Shown here: positions 48,946 to 52,291 of the stretch, in pieces | How positions within the stretch are numbered: position 1 is the stretch's first letter | How the letters are laid out: each line of letters opens with the position of its first letter | From: Nitrospirales bacterium | Lineage (GTDB): Bacteria; Nitrospirota; Nitrospiria; Nitrospirales; UBA8639 | Direction: 5' to 3' | DNA: 64,000 nt | Assembly (NCBI GenBank): GCA_963555755.3 | Contig: OY820905.2 | Coordinates: 2,752,001-2,816,000 of the forward strand | Program-made: the position numbers and the translations under genes | Notes under the pieces: model-generated | The model's database searches: none | What the model saw: only the letters and a program-made list of their open reading frames with translations | What the model was told of the DNA's origin: nothing

Positions 48946-49010
48946 TTCTTAAAGCGTCCTGCCTGAAGAATCAGAAACACTCCTTTCGGTGTTGCCGAAG
49001 AATTATTTAA

Positions 49011-49204
49011 TGTGGGCTTTCGCGCCCACACGACGAGTCACTTTTGTTCCGGCAAAAGTGACCAAAACCATGTTCGCCCGTGCGCGGCCCTCCGGGTGCC
49101 TCCGCCTCCCTCCCGAATCAAGATGGCTCGGGACCTCGCTCCGCTCAAACAACCCTCGCCGAAAAGTCGATTCGGGATGGAGACTCCGCCGCGCCCAACG
49201 CGGG
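49011..49204 (-). repeat. Structured repeat family E, copy E2
   Basis: Reverse-orientation homologue of E1/E4. Confidence 0.8.
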
Positions 49205-49404
49205 TTGAGGGGAGCTTGTGATATTTTTTGCTTTCCTAAACTCTCAACAAAAGATTTGATAATCAAATTTCCAAATTTGACCACAAATTCCAAATTTCTC
49301 CACAACCTTACCCCTTAACTTGATACCAATAGTTGACAGGTCAATCCATATCGGAAACTGGGGTTTCTCTTGATTTATAATTATCATGACAATATGATGG
49401 CATT

Positions 49405-49695
49405 ATGGTTGAACATTTCTTCACCTGGGATGAAAGCAAAAACCTAGAAAATCAACACAAACACGGGATCTCATTTAAAGAAGCTGCGACGATCTTCACC
49501 GATGAGAACGCGCGCATGATTCATGACCCGGACCATTCGGCAGATGAAGACCGATTCATTCTCCTTGGATTCAGTTCTAAAGCGCGGCTCATTGTTGTGG
49601 CACATACCTATCGGAAGCATGAAACGGAAATCCGAATTATCTCCGCTCGAAAAGCGGAAAAATATGAACGTGAAGAATATGGGAGTTTCCTATGA
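49405..49695 (+). CDS. brnT: Type II TA toxin, BrnT family
   Basis: FTWDESKNLENQHKHGISF, EDRFILLG, IRIISARKA. Confidence 0.92.
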   Translation: MVEHFFTWDESKNLENQHKHGISFKEAATIFTDENARMIHDPDHSADEDRFILLGFSSKARLIVVAHTYRKHETEIRIISARKAEKYEREEYGSFL

Positions 49696-49904
49696 GAAAA
49701 AGATACGATTTTTCCAAATCGGTAAAGAATCCTTATGCGAAGCAATTAAAGAAGCAGGTCACTCTTCGTCTCGGGATCGATGTTATCGCCTACTTCAAAA
49801 CGTTGGCTGAAGAAACAGGGATTCCGTACCAGAATCTGATAAATCTGTACCTTAAGGAGTGCGCGCATTCCGGGAAAAAACTTGGTCTCAAGTGGGCATC
49901 CTGA
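49692..49904 (+). CDS. brnA: Type II TA antitoxin, BrnA family
   Basis: MRKRYDFSK..KNPY, VTLRL, GIPYQNLINLYL; ATGA overlap with toxin. Confidence 0.88.
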   Translation: MRKRYDFSKSVKNPYAKQLKKQVTLRLGIDVIAYFKTLAEETGIPYQNLINLYLKECAHSGKKLGLKWAS

Positions 49905-49973
49905 AAATCTGCACAATAAGGAATGGTTCAACAGGTTGGAGGAAGATAGATTGTTTTTTAGGGAATTATTTTA

Positions 49974-50169
49974 TGCAGGGTTTCGTCCCCGCGCGACGAG
50001 TCACTTTTGTTTCGGCAAAAGTGACCAAAACCAAGTTCGCCCGTGCGCGGCCCCAAGGGGGTCCCTCCGCCTCCGCACCGAATAAGATGGCTCAGGAACT
50101 CGCTCCGCTCAAACAGCCTTCGCCAAAAAAGCCGATTCGGTACTACGGCTCCGCCGCGCCCAACGCGGG
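49974..50169 (-). repeat. Structured repeat family E, copy E3
   Basis: Direct repeat of E2, including a homologous AT-rich tail (AAACTCT.AACAAAAGAT.TG). Confidence 0.8.
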
Positions 50170-50322
50170 TAGAGCTAGACTTTTGATATTCTTACAAAAC
50201 TCTTAACAAAAGATCTGCCTCCAAACCTTAACGACAGCCGATGAGTTTCATTGTATAGGGAATTCTAAGGGCTTATACTACGCAAACAGAAAGCCCAGAT
50301 CTTTCCCTGCACATTCGAATTA

Positions 50323-50536
50323 GGGACTGTTGAATATCTCATACACAGATCCCATAAATACGCCGGGGAAGACGACCAACATCAGTGAGAGGAAATGTTC
50401 AAAAAAGCATGCCCTGAGTCTTTCCGAAGGGTCTATCCAGCAAGGCCGCAGCCCTTTGGACGCGCAGAGCGTACTCTCAGTAGGTGAGCACGGCAAAAGG
50501 GCGAGAACGCCGCTGGTGACTTTTTTCAACATTCCC
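50323..50536 (-). mobile_element. MITE family A, long form, copy A5
   Basis: GGGACTGTTGAA...TTCAACATTCCC; flanks AATTA/AATAA; reverse family A core. Confidence 0.8.
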
Positions 50537-50571
50537 AATAATTAAGTGAAAATTAATCAGGACATATATTA

Positions 50572-51300
50572 ATGAAGGGTGGTTTAACCAAATCCCAGGT
50601 TGACCGACTCGGGGACAAATTAAGAAATAATCTGCATAATGAGACAGACCTAAAATTGCTTGATGAATTTCGTAGATCATTTCATGAGGCGTACAAAACA
50701 GCAATAAATACTATACGTGATCGGACCAATATAGAACCCACTGGCAGACCAGCTAAGTCTACAAGTGCAATTATCGAGAAACTTAAACGAGAAAGTATTC
50801 GGCTCAGCCAAATTCAAGATATCGCGGGATGCAGAATCGTAGTGGCTACAATTATTGAGCAAAACGTGGTCGTCTCTTCCCTATACGAAGCTTTTCCAGA
50901 GAAAATTATAGTTGACCGTCGACTTAAACCCAGTCACGGGTATCGGGGAGTTCATATCATCTCCCAGATCAACGAAAAACCTATTGAAATTCAAGTCCGA
51001 AGCACTTTGCAACACCTATGGGCTGAATTTTCTGAGAAGTTGTCAGACGTTGTTGACCCCAGTATTAAGTATGGGGGTGGAGATGCTATAGTTCGAAAAC
51101 TGCTCCAAGATTGCACCTTACTTGTAGAGGAAATAGAAAGAATCGAATTAGGTATTGCGGGTCGAAAGAAGAAAAAATTAGACAGAAATAACAAAATTCA
51201 GTTGGAGGATTTTCAAGGCAATGTAGGAAAGATTAAAAACAAAATGGCAAAAGAACTCAAGAATTTTATAAGAGAATATTCAGAGTTATCGGAGCAATGA
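50572..51300 (+). CDS. Small alarmone synthetase (RelA/SpoT synthetase domain), CapRel/PhRel-like putative toxin
   Basis: TKSQVDRLG, RPAKS..AIIEKLKR, QDIAGCR, GYRGVH, EIQVRSTLQHLWAE, IKYG; AT-rich. Confidence 0.85.
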   Translation: MKGGLTKSQVDRLGDKLRNNLHNETDLKLLDEFRRSFHEAYKTAINTIRDRTNIEPTGRPAKSTSAIIEKLKRESIRLSQIQDIAGCRIVVATIIEQNVVVSSLYEAFPEKIIVDRRLKPSHGYRGVHIISQINEKPIEIQVRSTLQHLWAEFSEKLSDVVDPSIKYGGGDAIVRKLLQDCTLLVEEIERIELGIAGRKKKKLDRNNKIQLEDFQGNVGKIKNKMAKELKNFIREYSELSEQ

Positions 51301-51303
51301 GAA

Positions 51304-51546
51304 ATGATTTTTTTAATGGAATACGATCGATCAAAAGGAGAGTTAGTGAAATTCACCAGCTTCCAGGATGCTGACCGAACGAAAGCTGAAAATCTAAGGT
51401 TAAAGATTGAGATGGAGCTTCATAAACTTCATCAAGAACGAGAAATAGTATTATTAGAAGCTCCTAGTGAAGACGCCCTCCGTCGTACACATCGACGCTA
51501 CTTTGAAAAAGCAAGTCAGATAGGCCAGTCTGTGAGCGAAGGCTAG
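51304..51546 (+). CDS. Putative antitoxin/sensor resembling the CapRel C-terminal domain
   Basis: FLMEYDR...EIVLLEAPSEDALRRTHRRYF pattern; in frame with the upstream SAS, own GGAG SD. Confidence 0.7.
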   Translation: MIFLMEYDRSKGELVKFTSFQDADRTKAENLRLKIEMELHKLHQEREIVLLEAPSEDALRRTHRRYFEKASQIGQSVSEG

Positions 51547-51686
51547 CAATCTGCTCAAGCTGACTTTTTGAGCAGCGTATGGTTTAGAATGAATGTTGGG
51601 TGAGAAAAAATCTGCATAAATCCCCGTTTGATTTCCCATCTCCGCGCCCCGGTTTAAAAATTTGATTTGTTTCTTGCTTATCTCCT

Positions 51687-51882
51687 CCGCCTTCGGGCGC
51701 GGCGGAGCTGCGGTGCCGAATTCGACTATTCGGCGAGGGCTGTTTGAGCGGAGCGAGTTCCCGAGCCATTTAATTCGGCACCGGGGCGGAGTTCACCCGT
51801 AGGGACGCGCACGGGCGAAAATGGTTTTGGGTCCTTTTGCCGAAACAAAAGTGTCTCGTCGTGCCGGGGCGAAACCCGGCAT
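51687..51882 (+). repeat. Structured repeat family E, copy E4
   Basis: Same orientation as E1, inverted relative to E2/E3. Confidence 0.8.
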
Positions 51883-51950
51883 TAATAAAAACCAAACCAC
51901 TTTGTATACTGAGATGAAATTGAAAAAGATTGAGAAGGGAAAGACTCTAC

Positions 51951-51985
51951 CTCCCCTCACCCCTCCTTACAAAGGAGGGGGGAGA
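51951..51985. repeat. REP-like palindrome / possible terminator
   Basis: CTCCCCTCACCCCTCCTT-ACA-AAGGAGGGGGGAG. Confidence 0.45.
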
Positions 51986-52045
51986 AGAGAGACAGTTTTT
52001 TATAAAGGCCGAGGTTTTACAGGATAAGGCCTCAAAGGTTGAAGC

Positions 52046-52291
52046 TTAATCGTCGTCATCATCATCGTCGTCATCATCGTCGGCTTCCAGCGCTTCCTGC
52101 CGCATTTGCTCTTCCATTGCATTGTGAATCAACAAACGGAAGAACATCGAAATGACTGACCCTTTTTCCAGAGTCCCACCAGGTGGGACAGCAATCCGGC
52201 CTTCTTCCACCATTTTATCCAGCCACTTTTTTTGGTCTGGTGTCACGTGGACCGGTATTTCAATTAAGGGAATTCTCCCAAACATATCCAT
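52046..52291 (-). CDS. Small hypothetical protein with poly-Asp tail
   Basis: AAGGAGG SD; last gene after dapB; ends in a run of Asp codons. Confidence 0.75.
   Translation of the reverse strand: MDMFGRIPLIEIPVHVTPDQKKWLDKMVEEGRIAVPPGGTLEKGSVISMFFRLLIHNAMEEQMRQEALEADDDDDDDDDDD

Follow-up and report, generated by a model that had tools for sequence, protein, structure and literature searches.

We found that two adjacent genes in a Nitrospirales bacterium probably form a PhRel-ATphRel toxin-antitoxin pair, which would target translation and whose two components are kept as separate proteins. The window is the whole stretch of 64,000 nucleotides that was analyzed, and the features of the locus are the following (coordinates of the window).

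49000-49230, + strand: copy of dispersed repeat family A, flanking BrnT/BrnA
49405-49904, + strand: BrnT/BrnA toxin-antitoxin pair (PF04365, E 5e-28; PF14384, E 4e-07)
49963..50200, + strand: copy of repeat family A, 5' of the pair (ends approximate)
50385..50540, no strand assigned: copy of repeat family B, 5' of gene 1 (ends approximate)
50572..51300, + strand: gene 1, predicted PhRel-type toxic small alarmone synthetase, 242 aa (Pfam PF04607, model, tree, conserved residues)
50941..50943, + strand: codon of the G-loop tyrosine Y124 of gene 1 (BLASTP alignment with Y143 of Phrann PhRel)
51291..51294, + strand: GGAG, Shine-Dalgarno-like, for gene 2, within the 3' end of gene 1 (sequence; duplex of -5.8 kcal/mol)
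51298..51303, + strand: TGA stop of gene 1 and 3-nt spacer GAA (sequence; unchanged in the contigs of 4/4 runs)
51304..51546, + strand: gene 2, predicted ATphRel-type antitoxin, 80 aa (hhalign to gp30, PHROG 22117, model)
51490..51501, + strand: H63-R-R-Y66 motif of gene 2 (invariant in 65 relatives; alignments)
51551..51575, + strand: terminator-like hairpin directly 3' of gene 2 (pattern scan; consensus match only)
51680..51885, - strand: inverted copy of repeat family A, 3' of the pair (ends approximate)

Genes 1 and 2 share one reading frame across the junction CAA-TGA-GAA-ATG, and read-through of the gene 1 stop would yield a product with a computed length of 324 aa. The same-frame start of gene 2 had been pointed out in the original prediction, and both ORF lengths agree with it. 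Also borne out were the AT-rich character of the two-gene unit (39% G+C in gene 1 and 41% in gene 2, versus 51% in the genome) and the GGAG assigned to gene 2 as its own Shine-Dalgarno sequence, which sits 9 nt before the gene 2 ATG. A promoter scan gave sites no more commonly than in shuffled sequences (3 versus 3.8). We propose that ribosomes start gene 2 at its own ATG and ribosome-binding site and that this initiation would probably be coupled to the end of gene 1 translation at the TGA.

In the protein encoded by gene 1, a single synthetase domain is accompanied by helices at the N terminus and a helical hairpin at the C terminus. As described at the outset, the protein carries the motifs R59-x-x-K62, QDIAGCR, GYRGVH, and EIQVRS..QHLWAE and corresponds to a stand-alone RelA/SpoT synthetase: PF04607 (RelA_SpoT) was the sole domain in the Pfam search (E 2.5e-13), which returned neither a hydrolase nor a regulatory domain. 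The source genome has one further RelA/SpoT gene, which encodes a long Rel. The AlphaFold model of gene 1 (pLDDT 91.9) had its best fold match in the fused CapRel SJ46 (TM 0.65; PDB 9ERV and 7ZTB; Zhang et al. 2022, PMC9712102), CapRel being the only solved member of the CapRel/PhRel group among the matches, and the FaRel2-ATfaRel2 structure 8PU3 was also matched (E 1.4e-05). K62, D83, R88, Y124, E139, and Q141 were invariant in 98 relatives of gene 1, and R59 was found in 90% or more of them. Y124 aligns in BLASTP with Y143 of Phrann PhRel, and the Y143A variant of that protein is reported to be non-toxic (PMC7229694). Judging from these alignments, the catalytic residues of gene 1 are intact, including the G-loop tyrosine. 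Domain and fold support the proposed toxSAS-type synthetase, and the tree (see below) places it in the PhRel subfamily.

Gene 2 belongs to a large family of stand-alone proteins of 75 to 90 aa (67 matches in one search; 515 antitoxin clusters at E <= 1e-10) that no Pfam or NCBIfam model covers. Comparison of this family with Phrann gp30/ATphRel by hhalign gave a probability of 96.9% (E 1.8e-10), direct BLASTP of gene 2 against gp30 gave E 9e-09, and both proteins fall into PHROG 22117. The gene 2 profile matched the C termini of CapRel SJ46 (5.7%) and of the Nostoc CapRel (4.6%) faintly, and it scored 29 to 38 bits with four PhRel-side antitoxins and at most 15 bits with eleven fused proteins. 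The suggested resemblance of gene 2 to the C-terminal domain of CapRel holds insofar as gene 2 is a homolog of the CapRel/PhRel antitoxin domain, but its match to gp30 is strong and that to the CapRel C terminus faint. The gene 2 model (pLDDT 81.6) consists of a beta-beta-alpha-beta arrangement with short helices, a topology that fits a pseudo-zinc-finger. It aligns to residues 286-348 of 7ZTB, the C-terminal antitoxin part of CapRel SJ46, with a Z of 4.7 (rmsd 3.5, 54 residues) that lies in the background range and is tied with that of a designed protein. Comparison with CapRel SJ46 and Phrann, as had been recommended, thus confirmed homology to gp29/gp30 but yielded little for the SJ46 C terminus. 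Foldseek aligned the model to the CapRel pseudo-ZFD at E 1.7-3.2, with no match at E <= 0.001 and with the ATfaRel2 chain absent among the matches, and PDB sequence searches with gene 2 and its profile gave chance matches only.

The stretch T-H-R-R-Y-F is invariant in the gene 2 family, and gp30 has THSRYF at the corresponding place. HRRY of gene 2 occupies the position of HSRY in ATphRel and of the YXXY neutralization motif (YPNY) in CapRel, and YXXY itself was not found in gene 2. Among ten CapRel-group rows, Y/F-x-x-Y was seen wherever the motif could be extracted (9/10), and PhRel-side antitoxins have H-S-R-Y. Conservation of the antitoxin reaches 0.84-0.91 at strand 1 and at the strand 3/HRRY end, versus 0.45-0.59 between them. 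This variable middle, as read from the alignment, would fit the expectation for a sensor surface; with an identity of 49-62% across phyla, the antitoxin is less variable than an arms-race capsid sensor might be.

In a maximum likelihood tree of the synthetase core, the gene 1 clade was sister to the six-row Phrann group (support 96/84, with long-branch warnings and only six PhRel rows), and a grouping of gene 1 with ten fused CapRels was rejected (p-AU 0.006). This tree comprised 33 rows, after 10 of the 43 rows of a quick tree had been left out (one RelQ-like long branch and nine rows of the clade); in the quick 43-row tree, the PhRel and CapRel groups were unresolved. The toxin profile scored the fused Acetobacter protein (93.6 bits), the fused Nostoc CapRel (92.0 bits), and Phrann gp29 (90.9 bits) alike and on its own does not appear to separate PhRel from CapRel. 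By eye, PhRel-labelled rows of Dataset S5 (PMC7229694), such as those from Herbidospora and Allosalinactinospora, look like gene 1, and a motif search of that dataset found no exact member of the gene 1 clade. The usual state of PhRel is given as unfused in a figure legend (PMC9712102, Extended Data Fig. 1). Since gene 2 matches gp30 and gene 1 groups with PhRel and not with fused CapRel, the sequences indicate a PhRel/ATphRel-type pair and not a CapRel. The CapRel-like assignment of the original prediction is therefore replaced by PhRel, on the strength of the tree, the gp30 match, the PHROG, and the profile scores; CapRel membership was discarded on the faint SJ46 match, the p-AU value, and the gene 2 profile scores. 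We also observed a fused RelA/SpoT protein on an Acetobacter plasmid (L174:1285-2553) that has a PhRel-like THSHYF and ∼100 extra C-terminal residues and branches beside CapRel; a similar sequence, from Nitrospirae, occurs in Dataset S5 (PMC7229694) with the label capRel.

Genes 1 and 2 share with the PhRel-ATphRel pair (gp29-gp30) of Mycobacterium phage Phrann the toxin-then-antitoxin bicistron (as described in Jimmy et al. 2020, PMC7229694, and Kurata et al. 2021, 10.1101/2021.04.30.441581), the PHROGs, and a sister-group position in the tree, and gene 1 is 28% identical to gp29 over 183 aa. Unlike the Phrann pair, which is located in a prophage of Actinobacteria, they are chromosomal, and they also differ in the length of the toxin (242 aa versus 292 aa) and in the spacer (3 nt in frame versus 7 nt out of frame). 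From CapRel SJ46, a single ORF with YPNY, the locus is set apart by its two ORFs and its HRRY motif, and capsid sensing has been shown only for the fused CapRel SJ46.

The TGA between the two genes is real and not an assembly error, because it is unchanged in the contigs of 4/4 runs. Confirmation in raw reads had been called for; our check rests on assembled contigs, and runs X1 and X5 may be the source data. Contigs from X1 (depth 106) and X5 (depth 303) match positions 50489-51700 with 0 differences, and a contig from the RNA-library run X19 equals 51158-51700, also with 0 differences. A variant contig from X8 has 18 differences over 1,212 bases and none at 51291-51306; 3 of its base changes fall in gene 1 and 10 in gene 2, where they affect 9 codons, 6 of them synonymously. 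An assembly error at the TGA was rejected on these contigs, the variant strain included. It is hardly credible that the locus is a pseudogene, with a once-fused CapRel gene split through a recent nonsense mutation or through misassembly. The shared frame would suit such a history, and the PADLOC candidate PDC-S33, a 349-position model of fused proteins, matches gene 1 with its N-terminal part (E 5e-30) and gene 2 with its C-terminal part (E 5e-06); this model represents fused CapRel (290 bits for SJ46 and 422 bits for the Nostoc protein) and would probably miss split pairs. Against a broken gene stand the persistence of the TGA in all runs and in the variant strain, the close relatives, which are all split, and gene 2 itself, with its own conserved start and a majority of synonymous codon changes in the variant.

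The original prediction had also placed the pair at a boundary between fusion and fission and proposed a survey of fused and split homologs. No fused locus was found among 160 antitoxin-selected loci (the best 80 each of 185 loci from genomes and of 462 from metagenomes), a set for which one of the two genome search patterns began with the start Met and favors stand-alone genes, whereas the metagenome patterns did not. Toxin sequence was located upstream in 121/160 of these loci: 90 toxins were intact, 11 were cut by a contig end, 7 were partial, and 13 were in pieces next to a whole antitoxin, in a set chosen by antitoxin. A further 29 loci had no toxin in at least 900 nt upstream, and 10 were too short to judge. 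The antitoxin start codon was at position 1 in 159/160 loci. Evaluation of 93 distinct junctions with an intact or contig-cut toxin, the window included, revealed 56 overlaps (-17 in 28 cases, -4 in 24, -1 in 3, and -23 in 1) and 37 junctions without overlap. Only 10/93 junctions were in frame and 83/93 were out of frame; the 10 in-frame cases among the 37 non-overlapping junctions approach the one third expected by chance. The shared frame of genes 1 and 2 is thus likely incidental. Fused loci were also absent (0/28, with 2 loci in frame) from a toxin-selected set of 251 Pyrinomonadaceae genomes that overlaps the antitoxin-selected one. Of 2,960 toxin-like proteins at E <= 1e-10, a count that takes in other subfamilies, the 120 relatives listed all lacked the antitoxin domain; likewise, the 150 clusters listed for the antitoxin, from a total of 1,222, contained no whole synthetase. 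Because no locus of either set was fused and so few junctions were in frame, the pair does not appear to be poised at a fusion boundary, and the type and position of the stop are not conserved either.

Rare fusions were nevertheless seen, namely, one full-length protein and four deletion-fusions. P0073 (319 aa) is a full-length natural fusion nested in the gene 1 clade, known from one sequence on one contig and unconfirmed. In P0076, P0224, P0246, and P0234, the N-terminal part of the toxin is joined by a deletion to a whole antitoxin and the catalytic C-terminal half is absent; such deletion-fusions are likely a route of toxin loss. In five other proteins (P0071, P0072, P0333, P0070, and P0075), the antitoxin domain is extended C-terminally into other domains, including a pPIWI-associating nuclease (PF18165), DUF5677, a GNAT acetyltransferase, and a CxxC-containing tail. 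These extensions may have arisen by loss of stop codons, or the domain may have been reused to give other effectors a sensor.

Within the Nitrospirales branch, 7/8 junctions that have the toxin C terminus are in frame (spacers of 3, 12, 12, 18, 21, 21, and 21 nt), the remaining spacer being 20 nt, and the frame outlasted a 3-nt deletion and an apparent +1/-1 indel pair. A stop that is leaky by design, so that a self-inhibited, CapRel-like fusion is produced along with the two individual proteins, would account for this record and for the nesting of P0073 in the clade, and we consider it very improbable. The rows of the branch are close kin and amount to about two independent frame-keeping events, P0073 is a single sequence, and the stop varies in type and place (TGA at -3 in the window, TAG at -12 or -18, and TAA at -21, half of the stops being TAA). 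The junctions of three loci from other Nitrospirota, with overlaps of -4 or -17, are among the many that are out of frame. At the window's own junction, no structure was detected 3' of the stop (fold z of -0.06) and no Rfam family reached its gathering score; no Sec or suppressor tRNA was called, from an incomplete list in which ARAGORN also called no tRNA-Asn. Programmed read-through is disfavored by the lack of a conserved in-frame stop or context among relatives. Similarly improbable is a version in which selection keeps the Nitrospirales frames aligned, low-level read-through supplies a fused sensor on the way from PhRel to CapRel, and the regulated stop acts as a switch; if true, the pair would be a living intermediate, with bicistronic PhRel on one side and fused CapRel on the other. 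Among the literature matches listed, none had a title dealing with fusion of a toxSAS pair by read-through. We read the in-frame spacing as inherited within the Nitrospirales branch, the shared frame presumably having no function of its own. The stop is always there in the Nitrospirales junctions, and 3/8 toxins are frameshifted upstream of it. Three of the four nearest genome relatives (L001, L003, and L004) have frameshifted toxins beside intact antitoxins, and in L083 unrelated sequence takes the place of the toxin.

We then looked into the co-occurrence of the two genes. In the 251 Pyrinomonadaceae genomes, the toxin was present in 28 and was directly followed by the antitoxin in 27 of them, the sequence of the exception ending 76 nt past the match; the antitoxin was present in 40 genomes, 13 of which had no toxin match. 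Because nearly all toxins come with the antitoxin and about a third of the antitoxin genomes lack a toxin match, the distribution suggests a one-way dependence, as in a toxin-antitoxin pair, and the bicistronic toxin-then-antitoxin arrangement appears conserved. Upstream of the 29 orphan antitoxins, 38 ORFs were housekeeping, transport, or unassigned, with no recurring alternative toxin that would indicate partner swapping, and five orphans keep short toxin remnants. The clade of genes 1 and 2 has hosts in Nitrospirota, Acidobacteriota, Planctomycetota, Methylomirabilota, and delta-type bacteria. Presence is patchy, with 6/251 genomes of the source order and 0/6 of the congeners searched.

The surroundings of the pair are rich in repeats. 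BrnT/BrnA lies between pheT and the PhRel pair and is flanked by direct copies of repeat A. Repeat A (∼210 bp) has 45-48 near-full copies in the genome and repeat B (∼150 bp) has 177; both are rich in internal hairpins, neither matched an Rfam family at gathering score, and we infer that they are MITE- or REP-like. In the congeners G055 and G182, copies of repeat A surround different ORFs (L218:516-1172, L219:3700-4625, and L222:3466-4107), for which no Pfam or PADLOC match was obtained at the thresholds used. The congener sites correspond to that of the window, after pheT and before the dapB/dapA block, and are likewise repeat-flanked with variable cargo; in G182, 70 kb separate pheT from the dap block. 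A long hairpin located between repeat A and the dap operon end (51925-52000, + strand) is partly repeated 26 times in the genome and weakly matches the Rfam skipping-rope family below gathering score (25.7 versus 36.7 bits). After dapB, an 81-aa ORF (52046-52291, - strand) has an acidic poly-Asp tail and no Pfam match.

We propose that gene 1 pyrophosphorylates the 3' ends of tRNAs and thereby blocks translation, an activity that we regard as probable by analogy with its relatives. PhRel is reported to inhibit translation specifically (10.1101/2021.04.30.441581), it binds tRNA with a KD of 825 nM (PMC11782079), and a pseudo-ZFD-type partner goes with tRNA-targeting toxins (PMC11782079). Gene 2 would, with high probability, neutralize the toxin by direct binding and block its ATP site, HRRY acting in the role of YXXY. 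Block of the ATP site by an antitoxin through YXXY has been described (PMC11782079), and for the Phrann pair a pull-down of the toxin with the antitoxin is reported (PMC7229694). The model for this mechanism is FaRel2-ATfaRel2 (Dominguez-Molina et al. 2024, PMC11782079; see also 10.1101/2024.07.05.602228), which is also unfused and combines a tRNA-pyrophosphorylating FaRel2 with a pseudo-ZFD ATfaRel2, and which belongs to a subfamily other than that of genes 1 and 2. We lean slightly toward a third step, in which a phage product acts on the variable middle of the antitoxin and the released toxin would cause abortive infection. The trigger of unfused toxSAS pairs has been stated to be open (PMC11782079).

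The chemistry and the purpose of the pair each leave room for another reading. Production of (p)ppGpp or (p)ppApp by gene 1 instead of tRNA modification, possibly by a non-toxic small synthetase, is unlikely. The synthetase motifs are common to both kinds of enzyme, RelQ and RelP are the next PDB matches of gene 1, and Kurata et al. (2021) report no clear sequence signature of tRNA-using enzymes; against this, the alignment to CapRel begins at residue 4-6 and that to RelQ/RelP only at 44-57, the partner is of the pseudo-ZFD type, and in the Pyrinomonadaceae loci a toxin of the gene 1 type was not seen without its partner. A role outside phage defense, with the same pair serving as a mobile, selfish, or stress-responsive chromosomal module that would insert next to housekeeping genes and decay by toxin loss, is a more serious contender, although we do not favor it, and it is compatible with the chemistry proposed above. 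The orphan antitoxins and broken toxins described above would fit such a module, as would the position of the pair next to BrnT/BrnA between dispersed repeats. Among 58 flanking ORFs at 31 genome loci, Pfam matches were mostly to transport and metabolism and only two look toxin-antitoxin-related, PADLOC matches of flanking ORFs were to generic ABC, kinase, methylase, and GlgB domains, and two scans of IMG/VR, with gene 2 and with its alignment, found no viral copy. Because of these mostly housekeeping neighbors and the absence of a viral copy, the genomic context does not add support for phage defense. What speaks for defense is that both tested relatives, Phrann gp29/gp30 (reviewed in PMC9262239) and CapRel SJ46 (PMC9712102), are reported to defend against phage and that both genes match PDC-S33.

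Genes 1 and 2, which we take to be a PhRel-ATphRel pair, are a further member of an already described subfamily. Translation-targeting toxSASs have been mentioned in print for Acidobacteria and Planctomycetes, and in the literature found on CapRel, PhRel, toxSAS, and Phrann gp29/gp30 there was no treatment of the branch to which the pair belongs. The H-x-x-Y pair and the fusion P0073 could be used to address the trigger of toxSASs, a test that Phrann gp29/gp30 already offers. The finding carries modest weight in that it would add to PhRel/ATphRel a large clade whose phyla are mostly uncultured, among them Nitrospirota, Acidobacteriota, and Planctomycetota.
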